Shown here piece after piece: positions 10,737-50,152 of a stretch of 64,000 nt of DNA; positions within the stretch are counted from its first letter, which is position 1; every line of letters begins with the position of its first letter. The position numbers and the translations under genes are program-made. Origin of the DNA: Patescibacteria group bacterium (GTDB lineage: Bacteria > Patescibacteriota > Microgenomatia > Levybacterales > UBA12049). The DNA lies in the NCBI GenBank assembly GCA_026004395.1, contig BPJB01000001.1, positions 15,543 to 79,542 of the forward strand, in the 5' to 3' direction. The notes below the pieces were generated by a model that searched no databases, had not been told where the DNA came from, and was given only the letters and a program-made list of their open reading frames with translations.

Positions 10737-11633
10737 ATGAATACAGAACGTATTCAAGTGAGCAAATTGTTTGACAATTTGCATAATAGAATTAATAGAA
10801 GAGAATTTTTTAAAAGTGTAGCAGCTGCAACATCATCTCTTGTTTTTCCTCGAGCTGATGCAGAAGAACAGCTATTGTCGCAAGAACGGGAGCTTTCTTT
10901 CCGAGATACAAACGCTGCAATTATTTTTGTAGCTCAGTGGATTAATGATGTGTCGAGTGCTGGGTATGTTATTGACGGTGATGAATCTACTTATGGGAGG
11001 GCATGGAATAATTCTTCAGATGAGATGCGTAATCTTCTTATTTATCCTCCAGCTGAAGCAAGAATTAGAGAAATTGGTAATGTCGTAGGTTTAGATGATG
11101 GAAGATTTAAGATTACTGCAAAAGTAAACGGTTTATTTGATAAACCAAGTGTTGAGTCTACTCTTAATTTTATTGTAAGTAAAGAAGATACTGACAGATT
11201 TCAGATGGATTGGTCTGAACCTATCGATCAAACATCATCTCTTGTTTTTCCTCGAGCTGATGCAGAAGAACAGCTATTGTCGCAAGAACGGGAGCTTTCT
11301 TTCCGAGATACAAACGCTGCAATTATTTTTGTAGCTCAGTGGATTAATGATGTGTCGAGTGCTGGGTATGTTATTGACGGTGATGAATCTACTTATGGGA
11401 GGGCATGGAATAATTCTTCAGATGAGATGCGTAATCTTCTTATTTATCCTCCAGCTGAAGCAAGAATTAGAGAAATTGGTAATGTCGTAGGTTTAGATGA
11501 TGGAAGATTTAAGATTACTGCAAAAGTAAACGGTTTATTTGATAAACCAAGTGTTGAGTCTACTCTTAATTTTATTGTAAGTAAAGAAGATACTGACAGA
11601 TTTCAGATGGATTGGTCTGAACCTCTATCCTAA
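10737..11633 (+). CDS. Tat-signal exported protein with an exact internal duplication of a ~130-aa module
   Basis: N-terminus NRINRREFFKSVAAATSSLVFPRADA (RRxFxK + hydrophobic region + AxA). Residues ~31-164 are repeated exactly as ~165-298. Confidence 0.65.
   Translation: MNTERIQVSKLFDNLHNRINRREFFKSVAAATSSLVFPRADAEEQLLSQERELSFRDTNAAIIFVAQWINDVSSAGYVIDGDESTYGRAWNNSSDEMRNLLIYPPAEARIREIGNVVGLDDGRFKITAKVNGLFDKPSVESTLNFIVSKEDTDRFQMDWSEPIDQTSSLVFPRADAEEQLLSQERELSFRDTNAAIIFVAQWINDVSSAGYVIDGDESTYGRAWNNSSDEMRNLLIYPPAEARIREIGNVVGLDDGRFKITAKVNGLFDKPSVESTLNFIVSKEDTDRFQMDWSEPLS
10829..11624 (+). repeat. 402-bp head-to-tail tandem duplication (2 copies, ~394 bp identical) inside the CDS
   Basis: Copy 1 is 10829..11230; copy 2 is 11231..11624(+8). 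Identical through ...gattggtctgaacct. Confidence 0.9.
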
Positions 11634-21394: not shown

Positions 21395-21500
21395 CATTTT
21401 AAAGAGATATCCGGTAAGCAGGGTGAAAATCCCTCTCAGTGCCGCTACTGTAAAGACAGAAAACGGATATCTCTTAGTTGATCCCGAGCAGGAATTTAGT
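21395..21500 (+). promoter_or_regulatory. putative cobalamin riboswitch aptamer (compact)
   Basis: GGGTGAAAATCCC...CAGTGCCGCTACTGTAAAG matches the cobalamin core (GGUGnnAAnUCC...CCGCnACUGUAA). It is closed by a perfect 10-bp P1 (gagatatccg 21403-21412 / cggatatctc 21463-21472). Context: between nrdJ and pduO. Confidence 0.45.
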
Positions 21501-23927: not shown

Positions 23928-24100
23928 ATTTAATTATGAAAAATGTTTTAAGTAGTATAAAGGAAAGAACTGGCATTTTAATTAAATACTAAAATTAACT
24001 GAAAATATTGCCTCAAGTATGTAAATTTTTGCCATAGGAAAAATAAATTAAATGTATAATTTTGTTGTTTAACAAGTCCTTGCGTGGTAAGATATAAGAT

Positions 24101-24607
24101 ATGTCAGATGATCAAACACTACACAAAAATCAACCAAATAGCCAAGCTGATTCAGATCAAATCAACTACTCAAAGAATCAGGAAGGTAATCCTTCTTCGT
24201 CTTTAGCGCAGAATTCATCAGTGCAGAATTTAATAAGCGGTCCCCAAAAAGAACATGCGCCCTTAGAAGCGCCTGTTGTAGATTATATCAAGCCTACAGA
24301 GGTAGAACCTGTTCTTCATCCGGAAGTAAAAGAAGTAGGAGTCGAGATTTCACATGATCAAGAAAAACCAAAGCTTACAGAAGAACATCAACGCTTAGGT
24401 ATAGAATACGCAAAGGAATCAGTTCCTGTTTCTTTATCCAAAACCTCTGGTACTAATCTTCCTTATAATCCAGAACAAATAGCAATGCTTAAAAAAACTA
24501 CCCATAAAGACGATTCTAAACACTGGCTGGTAATTTTAACAGAGTATTTACTGAAAAAATTATCTTTTAATTCCAATCAAATGCGCAATCAGGAAAGGAG
24601 GGAGTGA
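24101..24607 (+). CDS. hypothetical protein
   Basis: ORF track only; the stop is 7 nt before the next gene. Confidence 0.35.
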   Translation: MSDDQTLHKNQPNSQADSDQINYSKNQEGNPSSSLAQNSSVQNLISGPQKEHAPLEAPVVDYIKPTEVEPVLHPEVKEVGVEISHDQEKPKLTEEHQRLGIEYAKESVPVSLSKTSGTNLPYNPEQIAMLKKTTHKDDSKHWLVILTEYLLKKLSFNSNQMRNQERRE

Positions 24608-24613
24608 TCATCA

Positions 24614-26971
24614 ATGTCAGCTGAGGGCTTAATATATCTTTTTTTTGGTATAGCTATTGGCTTTGCGTTATTAGGATTTTTGATTTTAGGATTAGGTTAT
24701 ATTTTTATCTTGTGGATGCGTAATAAAGGCCGTGAGAGTGAGTCTTTGAACTCGGTTTTACTTCAAGTATCTGTTCCGCGTGATAACGAGATTAAAATAG
24801 ATGCAGCAGAACAACTTTTTTCAAGTCTTGCATCACTGAGAAAAGGAGGCAGATTATCTTTCCTTAAACCTCAACCCCATCTTTCATTCGAGATCGTGGG
24901 AATGCCGGGTGATATTCGTTTTTATGTGCACGTTCCCAAGAAATACCAAGATTTTGTGGAAAAACAGATTAATGGAGCATATCCTGATGCTGAAATTGTT
25001 GAAGTGAGTGATCCTGCGGCTCGATCAAAAGAAGGAACTGTTATTGGAGGAGAATACAATATCTTTTCCGAAACAGGCAAAGTAGCTTTTGCATCTCTCA
25101 CATTAAAAGGAGATGATTATAAGCCTATCAAAGTCTTTAAAGATATGCCAGTTGACCCTCTTGCATCTCTGACTTCAATTCTTGCCAAAATGGGAGAAGG
25201 TGAAGGAGCAGCCATTCAATTTCTTATTCAACCAGCTGATTCCAAATGGAAAGAAAGCGGCAAAGAGTATCTTGCCAAAACGAAAAAAAACGAAGCCAAT
25301 CCTGAAACAGCCAAGTATAATGCAGATGCAAAAGAGTTGGAGGCAATAGAAAATAAACTTGGCAAGCCTGGATTTCATACAGTAGTTCGAGTAGTTGTTT
25401 CATCATCAACAAAAGAAGCTGCAGAGGCACATCTATCAAATATAATTAATGCCTTTAGTCAATATGCGGGGGTTAATTCATTTACTAAGAATAAACATTA
25501 CTTTAAAGGATTATTTGTTACAGATTTTATATATCGTTACTTTCCTATGCGGGGACAAACAGCTATTCTCAATAGTGAAGAATTGGCAACTCTTTTTCAT
25601 TTTCCCAATAAGAGTGTAACAACTCCTGGTATACATTGGGTTATCTCCAAGCGTGCTCCAGCTCCTGCAAATATTCCCACTGAGGGACTACATCTTGGTA
25701 AAAGCGTTTTTAGGGGGATTGTACGACCTGTTTTTATTGGTAGAGAGGATAGAAGACGCCATATGTATATTATTGGAAAAACAGGTACAGGTAAAACAGA
25801 GTTTCTCAAGCACATGATTATGCAGGATATTCGAGGTGGTGAAGGAGTTGCGGTTATAGATCCTCATGGAGACCTGATTGAGGATATTCTACAGCTTATG
25901 CCTCCAGAGAGAGCAGAGGATGTAATTCTTTTTGATCCATCGGATGTAGAACAACCTCTTGGATTCAATATGTTAGAGGCACAGACTGAGCAGCAGAAAC
26001 ATTTGGTGACGACTTCAGTCATTGGTCTGATGTATAAATTGTTTGATCCTAATAAGACAGGAATTATTGGTCCTCGCTTTGAGCATGCTGTTCGTAATGC
26101 TATGTTAACTGTGATGTATCAGCCGGGAGCAACTTTTATAGAGGTAGTGCGTGCGCTTACAGACCCATCATTTGTTCAGGAGCTTTTACCCCGAGTGGAG
26201 GATCCTGTCATCAGACGTTACTGGACAGATCAAATTGCCCAAACAAGCGATTTTCATAAATCAGAAGTACTTGACTATATTGTCTCCAAATTTGGTCGCT
26301 TCGTGACAAATAAGATGATTCGCAATATTATCGGTCAATCAGAGAGTGCGTTTAATTTTAGGGAAGCGATGGATACGCAAAAAATTCTTCTTATCAATCT
26401 TTCCAAAGGAAAGATAGGAGAGGAGAACTCAAGTTTCCTGGGTCTTGTGTTAGTGCCAAAAATCTTAGTTGCTGCTATGTCTAGACAAGATATGCCAATG
26501 GAAGATAGGCGAGATTTTTTCCTTTATGTTGATGAGTTTCAGAATTTCGCAACACCTGATTTTGCCCAAATTCTATCAGAGGCTAGAAAGTATCGCTTAA
26601 ATCTTATCGTTGCCAATCAATTTGTTGGACAAATGGAAGAGGAGGTAAAGAATGCTATTTTTGGTAATGTTGGTACATTATGTGCTTTTCGTGTAGGCGT
26701 CACTGATGCCAATTATCTTCAGCATGAGTTCCAGCCAACCTTCACAGAGGCTGATCTGATTAATATTGATAGGTTTAACTGTTATGTAAGAACAATTGTT
26801 GATGGTGAGCCTGTACCACCATTCTCTCTTGACACAACTAAAGATATTGCTGCTGAGAAGGCACTGCGTGATCCACGTGTTGCTGAGCTAGTGAAAGAAC
26901 TCTCTCGTCTCAAATATGGTAGGAACGTCAAGGTTGTAGAAGCAGAAATTACTCAGCGTGCCAAACTATAG
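24614..26971 (+). CDS. conjugative coupling-protein (TraD/VirD4/TraG-family)-like ATPase with an N-terminal TM hairpin
   Basis: N-terminal TM region; Walker A IIGKTGTGKT; Walker B FLYVDEFQNF; ARKYRLNLIVANQ motif. The stop TAG abuts the tRNA. Confidence 0.65.
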   Translation: MSAEGLIYLFFGIAIGFALLGFLILGLGYIFILWMRNKGRESESLNSVLLQVSVPRDNEIKIDAAEQLFSSLASLRKGGRLSFLKPQPHLSFEIVGMPGDIRFYVHVPKKYQDFVEKQINGAYPDAEIVEVSDPAARSKEGTVIGGEYNIFSETGKVAFASLTLKGDDYKPIKVFKDMPVDPLASLTSILAKMGEGEGAAIQFLIQPADSKWKESGKEYLAKTKKNEANPETAKYNADAKELEAIENKLGKPGFHTVVRVVVSSSTKEAAEAHLSNIINAFSQYAGVNSFTKNKHYFKGLFVTDFIYRYFPMRGQTAILNSEELATLFHFPNKSVTTPGIHWVISKRAPAPANIPTEGLHLGKSVFRGIVRPVFIGREDRRRHMYIIGKTGTGKTEFLKHMIMQDIRGGEGVAVIDPHGDLIEDILQLMPPERAEDVILFDPSDVEQPLGFNMLEAQTEQQKHLVTTSVIGLMYKLFDPNKTGIIGPRFEHAVRNAMLTVMYQPGATFIEVVRALTDPSFVQELLPRVEDPVIRRYWTDQIAQTSDFHKSEVLDYIVSKFGRFVTNKMIRNIIGQSESAFNFREAMDTQKILLINLSKGKIGEENSSFLGLVLVPKILVAAMSRQDMPMEDRRDFFLYVDEFQNFATPDFAQILSEARKYRLNLIVANQFVGQMEEEVKNAIFGNVGTLCAFRVGVTDANYLQHEFQPTFTEADLINIDRFNCYVRTIVDGEPVPPFSLDTTKDIAAEKALRDPRVAELVKELSRLKYGRNVKVVEAEITQRAKL

Positions 26972-27043
26972 TGGGCCTGGATGGGATCGAACCATCGACT
27001 TCCATTTTATAAGAATGGCACTCTACCGCTGAGTTACAGGCCC
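26972..27043 (-). tRNA. tRNA-Ile (anticodon UAU)
   Basis: Manual cloverleaf: GGGCCUG/CAGGCCC acceptor, D ACUC/GAGU, anticodon stem CCAUU/AAUGG with loop CUUAUAA, T arm GAUGG-UUCGAUC-CCAUC. No encoded CCA. Confidence 0.75.
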
Positions 27044-27475
27044 TACCTAATTCTGTGACAATAAGTATAATTTATCTTAAACTGCGATACAAGTCTGTCG
27101 TAATATGAATTGACATTTTAATTTTTCTTAGTTGTATTTCACCTAAGTCACATCTTGCGTTTTTTTCTTTTACAATTTTTATCTTTTTTTTAAGAAGCTA
27201 AAGTATTCTGCTTTTGAGAATAATTTCTCAGCTAATAAAGAGTATCTTAGCTAAGTTGAGTTACAGCCAAATCTTACTCTATACATTTGATTTTTTTTGT
27301 TTAAGTATAACAGCCCTAATACCTGATTTAATTTAGGTGGACAAACTAAAAAGGATTAATATTTTTCAGACTATTTTTAAAGTAAGAAATGGAAGATTTT
27401 CAGCAGGTATTAAAAGACATGATTTGTTCACTTCCAAAGTTGCTCAAAAGATGTGGGAAGTACATTTTGAGAGGT

Positions 27476-28336
27476 TTAGAGCTCACTCAATTGTGCTGTT
27501 TCTTTTCCGCGTTCTTTTACATACTCAAGGTAGCGTTCAGTGGTTGAGATTCTTTTATGTCCTAAAATTTTGGCTAGGAGGACGAGTGAGACTCCATGTT
27601 TGATATGATGTGCAACAAATGTGTGACGCAGATCATTGACTTTGGCATTCTCAATCTCAGCAATTCTAAAGTAACGTTCAATAGCTGTGCGAATATTGCG
27701 GACTAAGAAAGGTTTGCCGGATTTTGTAATAAATATGTGGTCATCCTTAACTTGAGGTCTGACTTTAAGATAGTTGTTAAGTGCTTCTTTGGCTGGACGA
27801 TTAAGAGGGACTAGTCTTTCCTCATGTTTTTCATAGGGACGAATCCTTAGATTATCTCCTTGGATGTCAGATAGTCTAAGTTCTGCGAGCTCTCCAATAC
27901 GAATACCTGTTTGCAGCAAAAGCTCAATAATAGCAAACATACGCGCATCGTTGCGCGCTGCATCTCGAAGAGCGCGGTATTCAGTAGGTTTGAGAATACG
28001 AGGTGGAGCAAGTTCATATCGTGGATGTTCAACCAGAAGCGATGGATCATCAGTAATATACTCATTTACTTTAAGAAACCTATAAAACGTGCGGGTAGAG
28101 TTGAGTTTTCGAGATAAGGATTTGGGAGTATATCCTTTTTCTGACATTTTGGCTAAAAAGGCTTGAATATCTTCGCTGGTTACTTCATGTACATGATGTT
28201 TTTGGAGTTCTTCTAGAAATGAAGCTAACTGCTCAATATCTTTTCCATATGCTAAAATAGTAGCATTGGAGTGTTTTTTGCTTTTAAGAAATTCGATAAA
28301 TTGTTTATGAGCATCACGAATTTTAGTACTCTGCAT
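27476..28336 (-). CDS. tyrosine site-specific recombinase, XerC/XerD-like
   Basis: 286 aa; N-terminal SAM-like domain; catalytic R..HxxR..Y region (HDLRHTF...HKRISTTERY). Confidence 0.85.
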   Translation of the reverse strand: MQSTKIRDAHKQFIEFLKSKKHSNATILAYGKDIEQLASFLEELQKHHVHEVTSEDIQAFLAKMSEKGYTPKSLSRKLNSTRTFYRFLKVNEYITDDPSLLVEHPRYELAPPRILKPTEYRALRDAARNDARMFAIIELLLQTGIRIGELAELRLSDIQGDNLRIRPYEKHEERLVPLNRPAKEALNNYLKVRPQVKDDHIFITKSGKPFLVRNIRTAIERYFRIAEIENAKVNDLRHTFVAHHIKHGVSLVLLAKILGHKRISTTERYLEYVKERGKETAQLSEL

Positions 28337-28401
28337 AGAAAAAGATTATCCCATAATATCAACTAATTTGCAACTAGTCAAGTAAAAAAAACTGCTCAAA
28401 G

Positions 28402-28749
28402 ATGAAAAAAATTTTTTATATTCTGATCATTATTATCTCAATTTATATCATCAATAATTTGATTAGATCTATTTATAATCTTTGGCAAAAACAAGATCTT
28501 GTTACACAGGCAAGAGAAGAACTTCAGAAAGAAAAAAATAAAAATGCCAAGTTGAATGATCAACTTCTACAGGTAAAACGTCCTGAGTTTATTGAAGAGG
28601 AAGCTCGTAATAAACTTTTTATGGTCAAAAAAGGAGAAAGCATTGTCCTTATTCCCGAGAATGTCTTTAATCACAAAACAATTTCAGAAAAGATGAAAGA
28701 GAAAAAATCTCATTGGCAGGAATGGCTTGAATTTTTCTTGATTCAATAA
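28402..28749 (+). CDS. cell-division protein FtsB/DivIC-like (septum formation initiator)
   Basis: N-terminal TM, coiled coil, then PEFIEEEARNKLFMVKKGESIV, which matches the FtsB/DivIC C-terminal motif. Confidence 0.7.
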   Translation: MKKIFYILIIIISIYIINNLIRSIYNLWQKQDLVTQAREELQKEKNKNAKLNDQLLQVKRPEFIEEEARNKLFMVKKGESIVLIPENVFNHKTISEKMKEKKSHWQEWLEFFLIQ

Positions 28750-28752
28750 AAA

Positions 28753-28780
28753 CAGCTCAAAAATCTTGAGCTGTTTTTTA
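28753..28780 (+). terminator. intrinsic terminator
   Basis: cagctcaa-aaatc-ttgagctg followed by TTTTTT. Confidence 0.6.
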
Positions 28781-28784
28781 TGTG

Positions 28785-28853
28785 TTGCGGGGCTGGTATC
28801 GAAACCAGACTATGAGATTATGAGCCTCATGTGCGCCTTACACTACCCCGCGC
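28785..28853 (-). tRNA. tRNA-Met-like (anticodon CAU), non-canonical, possibly damaged by 2 single-nt deletions
   Basis: Acceptor CGCGGGG/CCCCGCA (C1.A72 mismatch as in initiator tRNA), U8, anticodon arm UGAGG-CUCAUAA-UCUCA. But the D stem is 3 bp, nt 26 is absent, the T loop is 6 nt and total length is about 68 nt. Confidence 0.45.
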
Positions 28854-28995
28854 GTCGTATTGAATGATTAATAGAAGTTGTTATAATTTCATCAAAACTA
28901 TTTTGTCTAATGCTTCTAGTAAGTTTGAGGTAGTTAGCGTTCCAATTATAACATTTGATTCCTATCGGGTCAAATTGATATACTTGCATATACTT

Positions 28996-29069
28996 GCCAG
29001 GGTAGCTCAGTCGGTTAGAGCACAGCATTCATAACGCTGCGGTCGTGGGTTCAAATCCCACCCCTGGTA
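28996..29069 (+). tRNA. tRNA-Met (anticodon CAU; elongator-like, Ile2/lysidine type not excluded)
   Basis: GCCAGGG..CCCUGGU acceptor (G1.U72), D arm GCUCAGUCGGUUAGAGC, anticodon loop UUCAUAA, T arm GUGGG-UUCAAAU-CCCAC. Confidence 0.8.
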
Positions 29070-29409
29070 CTTCAGTTATATGATTTATCAAGTAGGAGAT
29101 TATTGCTTTGCAATGTTATTTAGCAAGTAGTTAGACCACTAAACCTCAGAGATTTTTATATCTATTTACAGACTTCCTTGAATTCAGAGAATATTTTTTA
29201 TCTTCAAACAGAGTAGAGTATCTACTAACACAAGTGATTAAGTCATCAATGTAGTGGGGGTGAGAAAAAGATTGTTTTAGCTTCTAGTAGTGTATTTCTT
29301 ATTGGGTGAAAAATATGCAGGTATACAGGTATACTTGGAGATTTAAATTTGAATTTTAATATCTTTAGGTTGCACCGTCTCTTTCTGAGATTTCTTTGGA
29401 GATATTTGA

Positions 29410-29967
29410 TCAATTCTTGGTAATATAAAAGTTCCCATAGTATGTTTTGTAACCTCCTTCCCAGAGCATGCGGATAATCTCAACAGCTTCTATCAGCATA
29501 TCTTGGCGGTCATTGATTGGCGGCCATCCCATTCCTACCACATGTTCGTTAAGGTTCTCACCTGTGCCTAATCCTAAAAAGAACCTTCCTTCCAAAAGTG
29601 AGGCAGATGTTGCTGCCGCCTGCGCAATGATAACAGGATGAATTCTCAAAATGGGACAAGTGACTCCTGTTCCCAGTCGGAGATTACTTGTTTTTTGTGA
29701 AATACCCCCTAAAACACTCCAGACAAAAGGTGATTGCCCTTGTTGTTCTATCCAAGGATGGAAATGGTCAGAAATGAGCGCAAAAGTAAAGCCGCTTTTT
29801 TCAGCTTGGGTTGCGTAGTCAATAAGTTGTTTGGGGTTATGTTCCTCTGATGAAAGTGCGTATCCAAGATTAATCATACATAAACTGTAGTGGTTGATTT
29901 CAAAGAAAGGATGAGATATTTGGTAGGAATCTGTAAGAAGAAAGAGGAGTTTTTTGGTACAATACAT
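29410..29967 (-). pseudogene. LLM-class (luciferase-like) flavin-dependent oxidoreductase, N-terminal ~185-aa fragment only
   Basis: LLM N-terminal signature (…ISDHFHPW…LGLGTGENLNEHV…) but only about half of a normal ~330-aa protein. Followed by ~330 bp of non-coding DNA. Confidence 0.5.
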
Positions 29968-29981
29968 TTACTTTACAATCT

Positions 29982-31376
29982 ATGAACTCTTTGCAGGAAA
30001 AATTGCAATTTTTTGCAGGTAAAAAAATCGCTATACTTGGTCTGGGAGTTGAAGGAATCTCAACTGCTAGATTTCTTGCCAAACAAAAAGCCAACCTTGT
30101 GATTTTTGATCAGAAGTCAGAGTCTGGCGTAGATCCTATTTTTATTAAAGAGGCAAAAGATCTAAAAAGTGTTTGTGTTTTAGGAAAGGATGCATTCAAA
30201 TATTTCGCAAAAGAGAGATTTGATATAGTAATACGCAGTCCCGGTATTAACAAAAACGAAGATTTTCTCATTCATTCTGCACGTTCTGGTGCAATAATCA
30301 CTTCACACACACAACTGTTCTTTGACTTTTGTCCCTGTCCGATCATTGGAGTTACTGGTACAAAAGGCAAGGGAACAACATCAACTCTTATCTATGAAAT
30401 GCTCAAAAAAGATGGAAAGGATGCGTATTTGGGAGGGAATATTGGTATTCCTCCATTAGAGTTTATTGATAAACTCTCCAAAAAATCATTGGTCGTTCTT
30501 GAACTTTCATCATTTCAGTTGCATGATCTGCATGCAAGTCCCCATATTGCTGTTATGCTGATGGTTGTTCCGGAACACTTAGATTATCACGATAGTGCAG
30601 AAGATTATGTTGATGCTAAACGGAATATTCTGCGTTTCCAAAGACACACAGATTTTGCTGTCCTTAATAGAGACTATATTGCAACTAATGAATCTGATAT
30701 TTATACAGATGGTAAAGTATATTTTGTTAGTCGTGAAAGAAAAGTAAATGAAGGATGCTATGTACAAAATGGTGCTTTTTGGATACGGCAAAACGGTCAC
30801 GAGAAAAAAATAATTGACACAAAAAATATTTTATTGCCCGGTAGGCACAACTGGGAAAATATCAGTGCTGCTATTATGGCTGCAAAACTTGCTGGAGTAA
30901 AGGAAGAATCAATAGTTTCTGTTCTTAAGACATTTAAAGGATTAGAGCACCGTCTTGAACTTGTAAGAGAAGTCAATGGTGTGCGCTATTTTGATGATTC
31001 ATTTTCAACAACGCCAGAGACAGCAATTGCTGCCATTGAAGCATTTACTGAACCTGAGATTTTGATTTTAGGAGGATCAAGTAAGAACAGTGATTTTACT
31101 CAGCTAGGTAATACGATCAGTAAGGCTTCAAATATAAAAGCAATTATTGGTATAGGAGAGGAATGGAAGAGGATTAAAGAATCACTTCATGATTTACCTC
31201 ACCATGTGTTAATAGTTGAAGGAGCAGATTCAATGCATAAAGCAGTGAGGGCAGCAGCTGCAATTGCCAGACGGGGAGATGTCGTCATTCTATCTCCAGC
31301 CTGTGCTAGTTTTGATATGTTCAAAAATTATAAAGAGCGGGGAAATATCTTTAAGGAGGAAGTATTCAAACTTTAA
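29982..31376 (+). CDS. murD: UDP-N-acetylmuramoyl-L-alanine--D-glutamate ligase
   Basis: 464 aa; N-terminal Rossmann (ILGLGVEG), Mur ligase P-loop GVTGTKGKGTTS. Confidence 0.9.
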   Translation: MNSLQEKLQFFAGKKIAILGLGVEGISTARFLAKQKANLVIFDQKSESGVDPIFIKEAKDLKSVCVLGKDAFKYFAKERFDIVIRSPGINKNEDFLIHSARSGAIITSHTQLFFDFCPCPIIGVTGTKGKGTTSTLIYEMLKKDGKDAYLGGNIGIPPLEFIDKLSKKSLVVLELSSFQLHDLHASPHIAVMLMVVPEHLDYHDSAEDYVDAKRNILRFQRHTDFAVLNRDYIATNESDIYTDGKVYFVSRERKVNEGCYVQNGAFWIRQNGHEKKIIDTKNILLPGRHNWENISAAIMAAKLAGVKEESIVSVLKTFKGLEHRLELVREVNGVRYFDDSFSTTPETAIAAIEAFTEPEILILGGSSKNSDFTQLGNTISKASNIKAIIGIGEEWKRIKESLHDLPHHVLIVEGADSMHKAVRAAAAIARRGDVVILSPACASFDMFKNYKERGNIFKEEVFKL

Positions 31377-31393
31377 CTAAAATTAAAATTTAG

Positions 31394-32692
<1,299 letters not shown>

Positions 32693-33541: not shown

Positions 33542-34524
33542 ATGAATAGGAAAAGAGTGTATTCTGGTATACGCGCGACGGGAAGATTGCATCTTGGGAA
33601 TTACCTTGGTGCAGTCAAGGGAATGCTTGAGCTACAGGAGAAGTACGATTGTATTTTTTCTGTAGTTGATTTACATGCAATTACGACTCCGTATGACCCT
33701 AAAACACTTAAGCAATCTGTGAGAGAGGTGATACTGGATTATCTTGGTGCAGGAGTGGATCCGAATAAGTGTTTACTTGAGATACAGTCTCGCGTTCCAG
33801 AGCATACAGAACTTGCGTATTATTTATCTACGATTTATCCTGTTGCCCGTCTTGGAGGATCTCCCAACGTATAAAGACAAAAAGGCTCAGCACCCAAAAT
33901 ATGTGAATATGGGTCTTCTATATTATCCCATACTTAATGGCAGCGGATATTTTGCTTTATAAAGCTGAGCTTGTTCCGGTTGGGATTGATCAGGAGCCCC
34001 ATATTGAGGTTACCCGCGAGATTGCTCGCAAATTTAACAGTATGTTTGGAGACACATTTCCCGAGCCCAAAAGATTTGCAACAGCGGGTGAGTATATACC
34101 ATCGCTTTTAGGAGAAGGGAAGATGAGCAAGTCAGTGGAGGGAAGTTATATTTCTCTAACTGATGATTTGGAAACAATCAAGCGCCGTCTAGCTGCTGCT
34201 CCTACTGATAGCGGAAAGACCGGTGGGGAAGTGCCAAAAACTGGAGGAGTTGCTCATCTTTTTACTCTTTTGAAACTTTTTTCTCTAGAGCTCTATGAAA
34301 AGTACGCCAAGGATTATCAAGAAGGAAAGATTCGCTATAGCGATATGAAATCGGATCTTGCACAGTTAATTTTTAATGAACTTCAACCTTTCCAAAAGAA
34401 GCGCAAAGAGTTTGAAAACAATCCTCAACTTGTTGATGCAATTTTGGATGAACATACTCATCAACTTCGCAGAATGGCGCAGTCTACAATACAAGAAGTA
34501 AAACAAAAGATGGGTTTTCTTTGA
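33542..34524 (+). CDS. trpS: tryptophan--tRNA ligase, interrupted by two 1-nt frameshifts (about 33850 and 33940)
   Basis: HIGH-like GRLHLGNYLG; the middle ...LEDLPTYKDKKAQ...LLYYPIL is only in a third frame; the KMSKS region (KMSKSVEG) in 33937..34524. Confidence 0.85.
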
Positions 34525-43629: not shown

Positions 43630-43704
43630 TCCGCGGTAGCTCAATGGTAGAGCAGGAAGCTGTTAACTTCAAGGTTCTAGGTTCGAGTCCTAGCCGCGGA
43701 GCCA
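43630..43704 (+). tRNA. tRNA-Asn (anticodon GUU), CCA encoded
   Basis: UCCGCGG/CCGCGGA acceptor, D arm GCUCAAUGGUAGAGC, anticodon loop CUGUUAA, T arm CUAGG-UUCGAGU-CCUAG, then GCCA. Confidence 0.85.
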
Positions 43705-44205
43705 AATTGTATGTTCAAAGGAAGCCGCCGACCCCCGCAAGGCGAAGTGGATTTTGATTGTTTCGAGTGAGTAAAGAATTTTAGAAAGAAACCTTTTGGC
43801 AAAAAAGTTTCTTTCAATTCCTTTTGATTTTTTGAGTCTGACAAGAAAAAATTTTAGAGTGTTTGAAATGTTTTCAAAGGAAAATTTAGAGCATACCTCT
43901 GGTAGTTCGTATCCAGCCCGGCACCCCGATTGAAAATCGTTATTTAAACGAAAAACAAGATTTTCGATATAGTTTTTATCAATCGAAATGCGCTCTAAAT
44001 TTTCCAGACAAAAATTTTCCAATCTTTCAGCGGAAATTTGTTTTACCGGGCAAGTTTGCCAATCCTGTCTTAGGGTTGAAGTACAGCGATAGTAATAATA
44101 TCTTTTTAATTTTTTGCCAGTTCTTTTATTGGTAAAACAAGATGTCATTTTAGAACTGCAATTTTCGCATTGGACCAATCCACCGAACAGAAAATTTCTG
44201 TACAT
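43690..44205 (-). pseudogene. large serine recombinase, C-terminal half only (zinc beta-ribbon + coiled coil + tail); catalytic domain absent
   Basis: FLFGGLVQCENCSSKMTSCFTNKRTGKKLKRYYYYRC…CPV matches the recombinase zinc-ribbon domain. No resolvase N-terminus. Its 3' end overlaps the tRNA-Asn 3' end. Confidence 0.65.
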
Positions 44206-45773: not shown

Positions 45774-47564
45774 TTATACCTCTTTTGTAACCAAAACTTC
45801 TTCTCCTAACATATCAATTATTTTGACTGCCACTTTGGTTGGCTTTTCACTTATTTCAAGCTCATATTCGCCTTTTACTAAATCGCTCTGTCTTTCGGGA
45901 ACATCCGAGAAACCAATCTTGAATACTTCACCGTCGTAATCCGTATCAACCAGCACTACATCGATCATCGACCTGAAATCTGGAATTTTCTTCTGCAAGA
46001 GTCCTGGTTCAAGCTCCAAGCGCTTAATGATCGTAGGGGAAATAAAGGCTAAAATTTTAATCTTTACTTTGTCTTTGCCTATCCGTTTAATTTCCACTTC
46101 TGCTTTTGATGGTTCGTAACTCACAAAGTTTTTGTCTTTCAGGTCAAAGACAATAAACTGACGCATGCGTTTCTTGCTTCTGGTATCTTTATAGGGTTGC
46201 TTTTTATTCCATTCCTCAACCCAACCGTCTACCTTTGTCTCCCTGCCCAGTGAGATGACCACTACATCTCTATCCTCGTCTGGGCGCTTATTAAGCTCAT
46301 CAACGATTAGCTGCAGGTCAAGTAGCGTTAAGGGGTGATTGAAATCTATAATTTTGACCAGCTCGCCACTATCCCGCAGACCGTCAAAGAAAGTGTCTGT
46401 TTTAGTTTTAGTAATTCCGTATTGCTGGATAGCCAATTCTTTAGCTTCAGTCTTCAAGATTCTTAAATCGTAGTTATTAACCTTGTAAATTGCGAAAGTG
46501 GGGTATTTTGTTTCTTTTTGATCTTTGATGATTTTTTGTAATCTTTTACTTGTTACTTGAATTGCTCCCTTATTAACATCAACCCCAATCCACCGCCTAC
46601 CCAATTTATGTGCTACCGCACAGGTCGTTCCCGAACCAACAAAACAGTCTAAAACTAAGTCGTTTTCGTCAGATGACCCTTTAATAACTTTCTCTAATAA
46701 AGCCTCTGGTTTTTGTGTAGCATAATTAGTTCTTTCTATGGCTTGAGAATTAATGATTGCAATTTCCCAAACATCTTCTGGAAGCCTTCCTAATGGATTA
46801 ACCTTCACAATTCTACCAAAAGAGGTTGTGCCAGATTCTGCTTGTTTTATTGTGCCTTCTTTGTAAGGAGTCCTTACTAAATCGATGTTAAATTTATAAC
46901 TGCTTTTATTCTTACAATAGAGGAGAATTGTATCATGCTTATGTAAATATTCCTTTTTAACCGAGCCTGATGGGTCTTTATAATGCCATACAATCTCATT
47001 TATAAGATTTTCTTCTCCAAATATTTCATCCATTAAAACTTTAATGTAATGAACCATCCTGTAATCCAAGTGGATATAAATACTGCCTGTTTCTGCCAGT
47101 AATTCCTTCAGCAAAATTAACCGCTCATACATAAACTGGAAGTATTCATCCCGTTTCCAAATATCTTCATACATCGTTTGTTGAATTATCGATTCACTGT
47201 CTTCTTCGATCCTGCCCAAATCTTTTAAGCCCCGCAGTTCAACTTTTCTCATGTAGTCTTTGTTGCTGGCAAACGGAGGATCGATATAAATCAGGTCAAC
47301 CTTGCCTCTGAAGCCAAGTTCCAAAAGTGTTGCTAAGACTTCTTTATTATCTCCATGAAACAGAAGATTGTGCCAATTTTTTTCAAGCTCGCTGAATTTA
47401 GGGGTTTCTGGGAATTTATCTTCCTTCTGGGGGTCAAAGACTTCAATTAGTTGTGTAGGGAAGCCTGTGACATATTCTAACGGGTGTTTATTAACCCAAT
47501 GGAGTAGAGGTCTGCCTTTTGGTGTTTCAACTTTTATTTTTTTGTTTGATTTATCATCTGTCAT
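45774..47564 (-). CDS. mod: Type III restriction-modification N6-adenine DNA methyltransferase (Mod)
   Basis: Motif IV IYIDPPF, motif [12 protein letters not shown]; 596 aa; start overlaps the res stop by 4 nt. Confidence 0.85.
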
Positions 47565-47566
47565 AT

Positions 47567-50152
47567 TTATTTTTTGTGTTGGTAAATCCAGTTAAAAACT
47601 GGCATAACTTTACCAAATACCGACTCTCCTTCCTCTAAAAGCAGGAGTTCATACTTTATTTTATCAGGATTTATCGCTTCCAGCTCTTGCATCTCTTTTT
47701 CAGCTTCCTTAATCCTGTATTTTGGCGCTTTTACCTCCACGATTAAAGATCTACCATCTTTCTTGCGAATTAAAAAGTCGGGGGTATAACTGTGCCAGTC
47801 TCCCTTGTCGTCTTTGTATTCAAAGATTAAATCGGTTTTAGCGGGATCGTTAATTGCGCCTGTGTAATAAATGTCCTCAACATTATCGGGGTCTTCACCA
47901 AGTTTAATAAGCATACTCTCAAAAAACTCTCGTTCATACTCTGAGTCAAAATTGTAAGGGTCGTAATGAAAGCCAAAGAGCGGTAGTTGTCCAGCCTTTG
48001 CTTTGTAGTCCTTCAGCTCCAGCACATATTTCTTCAGAGAGGTTTTGTTAACCCTAATGTGGGTCACATAGGAGGTTTTGCCGTCAACAGTTTCTTCTTC
48101 AAACCCTTTCTGCTTGATAAGAGCCAGTGCTTCTTCGACTGTTTCATTGACCACTTTGTAGCGCATGGTTTGTTTTTCTATTTGGGTGCGGATAAGTTCC
48201 AGTTCAAACGCCCCAATTTCTCCGTCTGGGTATAAGTTTTGGAGCAGTTTATAAGTTTTTAGCGAGTCTAAGCGGTAAGCATGAGCCAAAACTACGGCAG
48301 CTTGGAACAGGTCGATTTTCCTGTCTGTTACCGCTCCCTTTTTAGTTCCCACTTCAACCAGCACCCCTTTTCTCTGGGCTTTGGACATGGAATAAATGGT
48401 CTTTTCAAAGGATTTGACCGTTTCTTTGCCTGGTTTATCGATTTTTAGACACTCTTGCGCTTTCAAGTCTTCTGGGACTATCTTTTGGATGAGCTTTTTG
48501 ATAAGCAAAGGCGGCAGTTCAATCTTTCTAAGAGTTACTTTAACTGTTACCGTGTCCGTAGAAACCCTGTTGAGATCATCCAACCCCTCACCAAAGGTTT
48601 CTTGCAACTGCCGATCAAGAATGGAGACATTGTCTTTTGAGAGGTAAATCTTGGCTTTTTTGGTGTTGCCATTGACTTGTCTTAAACATCGACTGGCAGC
48701 TTGCAAAACAAAGTTATTGCTTGAATTAAGTTTCCTTGCCAGAGCGGTAGCGAATAAAGATAAGCAGTTCCACCCTTCTGTGCCTTTGTTGACGAGCAGG
48801 AAGACTCGGTAGGGCAGTTTGGGATCGTTAATGCGGTTGTCAAAAAGGTCTTTAATCTCATCAGTTGACTTGTTATGCACTGGCAGTACAACTGATGGGT
48901 CAATTTTTAATGAGATGAGAGTTTGCTCAACAATAGGCTTAGCTTTTTCTAGATCATCGACCTGAGGGAAGTAGATAGCCAGCTTGGCATATTCGCCGCT
49001 CTCAATTTGAACATCTTTGTATTCTTGAAAAAAGTCTTTAACTACATCAACAATGAAATCATGATCAGATACATCGGAATAGGCAATGATGTTGCCTCTT
49101 ACTTCTTTTAAGATTCCATCCTCAATACCTTGTGATAGTCCATACCAATAAATAACATCTCGCAGAAGCTGTCTTTGGTAATAGGGTGTGCCTGTGGTGT
49201 TAACTACCGCTAAAAGATTGGTTTTCTCGGCAATGTAGTTGATTGTCTGTCTGACCCTCTTCAGGTCGCTTGCCAGCTCCTGTCCGTAGGTGTGATGGGC
49301 TTCATCTGAGAAGACTGCCAAGTGAGGGAGCGAGGTAATGGTTTGCAACCTTAAATTAGCCACCAGCTCTTTTGCTTCTTCAATTCCCAGCCTCAACTGC
49401 CCTGACAGGAAAGATTTGGGGATACTGTTCTTTTGAAGTCTTATTTTTTCAGTGTTGGTGACAATAACATTAAAGGAGCTGCCTCGGATAACGGGAATGT
49501 CTTTCTCGCCATCCCTGGTGTAGGTGAATTTAACATTGGTGATAAAAGATTTATAGAAACGAGGGGGAAGTATTTTGTCGTATGGTGTGTCAGAGATTTC
49601 TCTCAAAGCACCCAGTATGGTCTTGCCAGGTGCAAATACCAGGGCATTTTTGATAAATATGCCATCTTCTTCCTGATATTCCAAAGCCATCGCAAACTCG
49701 GTAGCGATGATGGAAGCTATAAGGATTGTCTTACCTGCTCCCATTGCCAATGCCAGGATATAACTGGGGTATGAGAGAGTGAGTGTTTCTCTTAATGCTT
49801 CAAGCCTGTATTTCTTAACAAATACATCGTTGGTTCTGACTTTATCAATAATGAGATCTAATCCACCTCCTGCTAATAAGAGATCTGTCAAATCTTCCTC
49901 TGACAAGCAGATGCCGAGTGCCTTTAATAGTTCTTTTCCTTGAAAGTATTCCTTGTAAAGATTGAAGATGTTTGGTGTGTTTTTGACTAAGCGTAAATAC
50001 CAGTAAGTTTCTAACGCCTCAAATTGTGCCTTTCTTAGAAAGTCATTCTGGTTATGCTGGAAAATGGTGGCAATAGCAGGATAAGAGGAAGGATAATCTT
50101 GCTGTCTCCAATTAGCAACATCTAATTTCAATTTTTGATAAAGATTGATCAT
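47567..50152 (-). CDS. res: Type III restriction enzyme Res subunit (SF2 helicase + PD-(D/E)xK nuclease)
   Basis: Walker [13 protein letters not shown] box FSDEAHH, C-terminal PDFLI…VEVK nuclease motif; 861 aa. Confidence 0.85.

Follow-up and report, generated by a model that had tools for sequence, protein, structure and literature searches.

TilS, the enzyme of the lysidine route, tends to be portrayed as essential and found in nearly all bacteria, and even as a target for antibiotics. A tRNA-Ile with an encoded UAU anticodon is a minority solution among bacteria, as a previous sequence-only reading of the locus described here had put it and as the literature agrees (PMC3575796; PMC8450103, 17 genomes; a 2026 preprint writing of 'rare cases'). 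In 2013, nine tilS-less species in three clades were known to carry tRNA-Ile(UAU), together with a few species possessing both systems (PMC3575796); tRNADB-CE holds tRNA-Ile(UAU) in 19 species, and the tRNAscan-SE 2.0 survey recovered bacterial tRNA-Ile(UAU) in 17 genomes (PMC8450103). Coexistence of tilS and tRNA-Ile(TAT) is documented for Lactobacillus casei, Lactobacillus plantarum, Cyanothece PCC 7424 and Ferrimonas balearica (PMC3575796). In Mycoplasma mobile, acceptance of U34 depends on IleRS Arg865, which replaces the Trp that stacks on base 34, and Bifidobacterium and Neorickettsia possess a eukaryote-type IleRS (PMC3575796). In addition, Taniguchi et al. 2013 reported 371 unassigned metagenomic tDNA-Ile(TAT) sequences (PMC3575796).

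The locus that we compare with these systems belongs to the Patescibacteria (CPR) MAG KatS3mg089, a 1.08-Mb genome whose closest named relatives are Candidatus Levybacteria/Levyibacteriota of the Microgenomates group, and was analyzed within a stretch of 64 kb, referred to as the window. A full-text literature search returned no paper linking CPR/Patescibacteria with lysidine, tilS or a UAU tRNA. The tRNA-Ile(UAU) as a bacterial kind being already known, its apparently lineage-wide occurrence in a CPR lineage is what is new.

The tRNA-Ile(UAU) gene and its orthologues

The tRNA-Ile gene, with T34 A35 T36 as its anticodon, occupies positions 26972-27043 on the minus strand, the strand having been absent from the sequence-only reading. 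ARAGORN, run on the 64-kb window, placed tRNA-Ile(tat) at 26971-27043 (minus) as one of four tRNAs called, and Rfam RF00005 matched 26972-27043(-) over its full length with 69.7 bits (E=3.9e-13). The RNA reads GGGCCUGUAACUCAGCGGUAGAGUGCCAUUCUUAUAAAAUGGAAGUCGAUGGUUCGAUCCCAUCCAGGCCCA, which amounts to 72 nt when counted up to the discriminator A73; C74 follows at 26971, and CCA is not encoded in the gene. Its minimum-energy fold is the canonical cloverleaf, with acceptor, D, anticodon and T stems of 7, 4, 5 and 5 bp, respectively, and a 7-nt anticodon loop, CUUAUAA, in which positions 34-36 are UAU. The clean cloverleaf, the loop and the coordinates given beforehand were thereby reproduced by ARAGORN, Rfam and the minimum-energy fold, and ARAGORN, as a check on the anticodon, kept tat and offered no other anticodon position. 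By all appearances, this is a real, working-looking tRNA.

The 3' end of the tRNA adjoins the TAG stop of a + strand ORF (24614-26971). Upstream of the tRNA, a consensus scan returned a weak and tentative match to a sigma-70-like promoter (27115-27142, minus strand; GTGAAA-16-TAAAAT, 9/12), which we treat as putative; in relatives, TGnTATAAT-type -10 boxes can be read from the sequence ~12-35 nt upstream of tRNA-Ile(UAU), in either orientation.

The identical tRNA-Ile(UAU) gene is also found in an independent Logan assembly (L001), built from run DRR290133. For the comparison with relatives, 22 orthologues of the ATPase encoded by the adjoining ORF were aligned, and the alignment was used to fetch 80 loci from a one-genome-per-species collection (66-83% protein identity), labelled Levybacteria/Levyibacteriota, Patescibacteria and, in one case, Gottesmanbacteria, plus various obviously mislabelled MAGs. 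Of the 80 loci, 67 have a tRNA-Ile(tat), called by ARAGORN, shortly downstream of the ATPase gene, corresponding to 67/74 when only loci reaching more than 0.4 kb past the ATPase gene are counted. Six of the 13 loci lacking it end less than 0.4 kb past the ATPase gene or inside that gene, and in the other seven, which have sufficient flanking sequence, Xer and DivIC are also missing, synteny being broken there.

No variation occurs at C32-U33-U34-A35-U36-A37 or A73 across the 62 distinct orthologue sequences. In the cloverleaf, 99.5% of the 1302 stem cells form standard pairs, and compensatory changes affecting both sides occur in 18 of the 21 stem pairs. None of 500 shuffled controls reached any of the five covariation measures, and sliding the 3' partners by 1-3 columns reduced pairing to 26-42%. 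A blastn search of the tRNA against 5,426 E. coli genomes gave no match. The alignment is that expected of a functional tRNA maintained by purifying selection over a long time, and the tRNA-Ile(UAU) is, judging from the distribution of its orthologues, a lineage-wide feature of Levybacteria/Microgenomates and not a single-genome oddity.

The 3' end of the gene shows a further regularity. C74 follows the discriminator A73 in 68/68 tRNA-Ile(TAT) genes, and a complete CCA is encoded in only six of them; the conserved C74 may be a 3'-processing signal, or a partial CCA that leaves C75-A76 to the CCA-adding enzyme.

The AUA-decoding route and the neighbouring CAU tRNAs

The best explanation of these data, and one in which we place high confidence, is that of a functional, vertically inherited tRNA-Ile on the core chromosome, the unconverted UAU anticodon of which pairs directly with AUA and which would act as the main AUA decoder. 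According to this model, AUA paired with the unconverted anticodon would be read as Ile. Analogy with Mycoplasma mobile, Bifidobacterium and Neorickettsia suggests that tRNA-Ile(UAU) would be charged by an IleRS that accepts U34. By the same analogy, such an enzyme could be of the bacterial type, with Arg or Lys replacing the Trp that contacts base 34, or a eukaryote-type IleRS2; a search for IleRS (KMSKS, >400 aa) found none in the window or in the 80 related loci, all of which cover one region. Misreading of AUG via U.G wobble might be limited by competition from tRNA-Met together with a ribosomal property, as in M. mobile, or a modification of U34, as in eukaryotes. The tRNA-Ile(UAU) would then be the main, and probably the only, decoder of AUA, the lysidine/TilS route being dispensable or lost.

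Regarding that route, position 34, which is C in a lysidine substrate, is T in the window, and the independent assembly and each of the 67 orthologues agree. A six-frame search of the 64-kb window for the PP-loop motif SGGxDS retrieved only GuaA and no tilS. Over the 80 related loci (~0.9 Mb, same region as the window), the motif was found in GuaA, in a 156-aa ORF of locus L012 and in a 238-aa ORF of locus L071 that looks by eye like a Dph6-type ATPase, and no TilS was recognised; as the same region is sampled throughout, this is weak evidence. Since reduced genomes of ~1 Mb rarely keep redundant decoders, we nevertheless incline, with some reserve, towards absence of TilS from the lineage and rate coexistence of the two systems as unlikely. 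Similarly, a cautious preference goes to the view that Levybacteria, and possibly the wider Microgenomates, have neither tilS nor tRNA-Ile2(CAU) and read AUA solely by the encoded UAU tRNA.

Among the alternatives, redundancy survives best, even if we hold it to be doubtful. TilS and a tRNA-Ile2(CAU->LAU) would in this case be encoded elsewhere, or the CAU tRNA at 28996-29069 would itself be tRNA-Ile2, and the UAU tRNA would overlap with this system. The window represents 64 kb of a 1.08-Mb genome, 94% of which lies outside view, and tilS has been described as highly conserved across bacteria (PMC12514573). Redundancy of both systems is likewise documented, for example in L. casei and L. plantarum (PMC3575796), so that the different AUA-decoding strategy that the sequence-only reading saw implied would, in the sense of a lack of TilS or lysidine, not follow from the UAU tRNA by itself. 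Here, however, reduced ~1-Mb genomes throughout a phylum-level radiation would have to retain both systems, although the UAU gene is near-universal there and its anticodon invariant.

The neighbouring tRNAs bear on the same question. Two CAU tRNAs had been reported ~1.8 kb away, and both are real according to ARAGORN and Rfam, at 28785-28852(-) and 28996-29069(+). The first, of 68 nt (Rfam 44.7 bits), has a C1xA72 mismatch, G2-C71, C3-G70 and A29-G30-G31/U39-C40-U41, and the bacterial initiator signature generalised by Silva et al. (PMC1635315) comprises an R29-G30-G31/Y39-C40-Y41 stem, C1xA72, G2-C71 and C3-G70. By these initiator criteria, the 28785-28852(-) tRNA is assigned as the initiator tRNA-fMet.

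The second, at 28996-29069 on the + strand, is of the elongator type. Its best match in the 5,426 E. coli genomes is metT/metU (84.5% over 58 nt, 65 bits), with ileX, the E. coli tRNA-Ile2, behind it (81.7%, 49 bits); positions 8-31 are nearly identical to metU, and the C4-G69/C5-G68 pairs frequent in tRNA-Ile2 are lacking. Over the whole molecule, identity is tied at 0.67 for metU and 0.67 for ileX, an equality that speaks for redundancy. The 3-70 rule of Silva et al. identifies tRNA-Ile2 only when G3/A3/C70/T70 is present, and as ileX itself has C3-G70, the C3-G70 of the 28996-29069 tRNA proves nothing. An elongator tRNA-Met must exist, and this tRNA is the only candidate seen. In our assessment it is quite probably the elongator tRNA-Met. 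The earlier question of a tRNA-Ile2 among the nearby CAU tRNAs is settled for one of them, an initiator by its C1xA72; the other is closer to Met locally and tied globally.

Both CAU tRNAs have structural peculiarities of their own. The initiator is 68-70 nt long in a form conserved across Levybacteria loci (e.g. L010:13900-13969 and L021:9882-9951), its D-loop is reduced to ~5 nt and lacks G18-G19, and its T-loop, of 6 nt in the window (UUCGAU) and mostly CGCAACU among relatives, has no T54-Psi55 motif. Moreover, it has U11-A24 and not the A11-U24 said to be universal in bacterial initiators. These features suggest an unusual elbow and formylation-recognition geometry of the initiator tRNA. 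In the 28996-29069 tRNA and more than 20 relatives, a G1.U72 wobble tops the acceptor stem and an A31xC39 mismatch lies at the base of the anticodon stem, both persisting even where adjacent stem pairs covary. Finally, the CAU tRNA beside the initiator in L012:10310-10382 and L065:9617-9696 has an aberrant 5' half (GGCAGGAAGUGGACUGGUGUCCCGGGGCG...) with no normal D-arm, which could mean decay of the gene or a further case of structural reduction among CPR tRNAs.

Chromosomal setting and the meaning of AUA

The ORF adjoining the tRNA (24614-26971, +) encodes a VirD4/TraD-like coupling ATPase with DUF8128 and T4CP domains (Pfam, NCBIfam), which served as syntenic anchor, and a XerC/XerD-like tyrosine recombinase (Pfam; best NCBIfam matches XerD/XerC, 173 bits) is encoded on the other side of the tRNA (27476-28336, minus strand). 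The ATPase shares 100% identity with the NCBI protein KatS3mg089_0038, encoded on a contig of 1,084,101 bp. Neighbouring ORFs are ordinary bacterial housekeeping genes, e.g. FtsB/DivIC, MurD and Tgt. As determined by tBLASTn of window proteins against the loci, the order RNR, CobAT, two hypothetical genes, ATPase, tRNA-Ile(UAU) is kept and continues with Xer, FtsB/DivIC, tRNA-fMet/tRNA-Met, MurD and Tgt; dozens of genomes share this collinear arrangement of ATPase, recombinase, RNR, FtsB, MurD and Tgt, with identities of 66-88%. Orthologues of the recombinase occupy the same position in relatives at 54-88% identity, and at 72-88% in most loci. This conserved synteny, including that of Xer, argues for core-genome status of the tRNA-Ile(UAU), and we take the recombinase, from its conserved place, to be a conserved chromosomal neighbour and not an island integrase.

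It is highly improbable that the tRNA-Ile(UAU) is the cargo or attachment site of a mobile element, or a phage-derived tRNA. A gene of the Phage_integrase family does lie 430 bp from it and a VirD4/TraD-like ATPase adjoins it, but both are collinear with the flanking housekeeping genes across dozens of genomes, as expected of core genes. Window G+C stays at 32-44% throughout, with no island-like shift near the tRNA, and the flanks of the window tRNA showed no notable repeats, direct or inverted. A phage origin was rejected, as blastn of 24000-31900 against 50,697 phage records detected nothing beyond generic tRNA similarity over 76 nt; the phage 'tRNA-Ile' matches fell on the window CAU tRNA, and the phage genes, being GAU tRNAs that read AUC, are uninformative. 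Overall, core synteny, a Xer-like recombinase and no phage similarity were found in place of a variable, horizontally acquired location.

A further feature that speaks for mobility is orientation. Among 68 genes, 55 tRNA-Ile(UAU) run in the same direction as the ATPase gene and 13, including that of the window, in the opposite one, and inserts of 0.5-4 kb occur on either side of the tRNA in relatives. Both orientations are seen between a fixed ATPase (+) and a fixed Xer (-), even with identical tRNA sequence (L012:7950-8022(-) and L023:8824-8897(+); L055:8345-8417(-) and L051:8429-8502(+)), and for the fMet/Met tRNA pair, too, both orders occur among relatives. Each tRNA-Ile(UAU) copy seems to be accompanied by its own -10-like box. 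An invertible switch was considered and rejected, since no flanking inverted repeats were found in the window and the box seems to travel with each copy; we read the orientation differences as ordinary local rearrangement.

Several other features of the window were recorded. An AdoCbl-II (B12) riboswitch (21403-21474, +; 38.2 bits, gathering threshold 36.5) lies between the genes for a class II (B12-dependent) ribonucleotide reductase and a cobalamin adenosyltransferase, a pairing of RNR and CobAT that is kept in relatives. Tryptophanyl-tRNA synthetase is apparently split, by eye, into ORFs of 110 and 195 aa (33542-33874 and 33937-34524, +), as could result from a frameshift or misassembly, from pseudogene formation or from a true division of the enzyme. 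A predicted protein of 298 aa (10737-11633, +) contains a near-perfect internal tandem duplication of ~130 residues, with SSLVFPRADAEEQLL...FQMDWSEP occurring twice. Judged by eye from translations, 45774-50152 (-) encodes a type III restriction-modification-like pair (596-aa methylase and 861-aa helicase/endonuclease), and a truncated recombinase-like ORF (43690-44205, -) lies just downstream of tRNA-Asn(GTT) at 43630-43704; together, these may form a small island integrated at tRNA-Asn.

The codon that the tRNA is predicted to read is in frequent use. Counted over 54 long ORFs of the window that do not overlap, AUA accounts for 336 of 1284 Ile codons (26%), or 20.2 per 1000 codons, which falls in the 'high' usage class of PMC12514573, so that the check on AUA usage came out as frequent. 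In the same ORFs, internal AUG stands at 15.9 per 1000 codons, below AUA, and Met usage may be depressed in lineages that decode AUA with U34.

Codon alignments were built for four orthologue families (ATPase, Xer, CobAT and RNR; up to 81 genomes), and, for each AUA codon in a well-occupied column, the residues from the other codons of that column were tabulated. AUA columns (n=1618) hold 59% Ile, 18% Val, 8.5% Leu and 2.8% Met, compared to 54%, 23%, 9.9% and 3.5% for AUU (n=4622) and 65%, 16%, 7.9% and 2.6% for AUC (n=1956). The AUA profile is thus like those of AUU and AUC, which indicates that this lineage reads AUA as isoleucine. Recoded codons are known from CPR lineages, and U34 can wobble to G; a code variant in which the UAU tRNA reads AUA, and perhaps AUG, as a residue other than Ile, such as Met in many mitochondria, is still less probable than mobility, given this shared Ile/Val/Leu profile with Met at only 2.8%, the need of MetRS for C34, and the Ile-type elements A73, U12-A23 and A37 of the tRNA.

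With respect to isoleucine identity, the E. coli IleRS determinants A73, U12-A23 (62/62), A35, U36 and A37 are all invariant in the tRNA-Ile(UAU) family, and C4-G69 occurs in half of its members and in the window tRNA. Two further E. coli determinants, C29-G41 and G16, are absent, and position 38 varies (A in 48 genes, C in 17 and U in 3), so identity rules must differ somewhat from those of E. coli.

An artefact or pseudogene, i.e. a sequencing or assembly error at T34 of a CAU tRNA or a decaying gene copy, has a negligible probability: although a single C->T change converts CAU to UAU and the source is a metagenome-assembled genome, the independent assembly is identical, the 67 orthologues, which come from various samples and studies, all have TAT, with no CAT variant at this position among the 80 related loci, covariation is strong, and the conserved tRNA positions are intact.

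Significance and comparison with known systems

With a UAU tRNA under apparently strong purifying selection, at a fixed core position and with high AUA use, an exception becomes a lineage-level trait. Some of the 371 metagenomic tDNA-Ile(TAT) sequences left unassigned in 2013 may be Levybacteria-type genes, and the 62 natural variants provide a diverse set with which to study the handling of an unprotected U34 by IleRS and the ribosome. Should tilS prove to be missing, the translation apparatus would be reduced in yet another respect beyond those already described for CPR bacteria. Abandonment of lysidine would make this by far the largest bacterial lineage without TilS, and would entail a lineage-wide U34-accepting IleRS together with a ribosomal feature or an undescribed U34 modification that blocks AUG reading. 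Such adaptations, if real, would sit alongside the odd tRNAs of the lineage, namely its truncated initiator and its mismatched elongator Met.

The canonical TilS/tRNA-Ile2(CAU->lysidine) pathway performs the same task as that proposed here, the reading of AUA as Ile without reading AUG. In contrast to that pathway, T34 and not C34 is encoded, so lysidine cannot form on tRNA-Ile(UAU). In L. casei, L. plantarum, Cyanothece PCC 7424 and Ferrimonas balearica, tilS is known to be present alongside tRNA-Ile(TAT) (PMC3575796).

Outside bacteria, the tRNA-Ile3(UAU) of Nanoarchaeum equitans and Korarchaeum cryptofilum likewise belongs to reduced-genome, partly symbiotic lineages in which UAU replaces a modified-cytidine route; these archaea represent another domain, and the route replaced there is agmatidine/TiaS (PMC8450103). 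Eukaryotic cytoplasmic tRNA-Ile(UAU) is similarly a UAU-encoded minor Ile tRNA dedicated to AUA; it differs in having an intron and PsiAPsi (pseudouridine at 34 and 36) made by eukaryotic enzymes, neither of which is evidenced here.

The closest described bacterial cases are M. mobile and the Bifidobacterium and Neorickettsia clades. The M. mobile tRNA-Ile2(UAU) resembles the present one in its encoded UAU anticodon, its A37 and its setting of frequent AUA, the M. mobile genome being small and A+T-rich (PMC3575796). For M. mobile, the absence of tilS, an unmodified U34, IleRS Arg865 and ribosomal rejection of AUG have been demonstrated. M. mobile stands apart from other Mycoplasma in this respect, whereas the UAU gene described here appears common to a whole CPR lineage, at a fixed chromosomal position. 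In being clade-wide, the trait is akin to that of Bifidobacterium and Neorickettsia, genus-level clades without tilS that replaced tRNA-Ile2(CAU) by tRNA-Ile3(UAU) (PMC3575796; PMC8450103). Unlike those, it occurs in an unrelated lineage, and its breadth appears larger, extending to the candidate-phylum level with at least one Gottesmanbacteria-labelled record.
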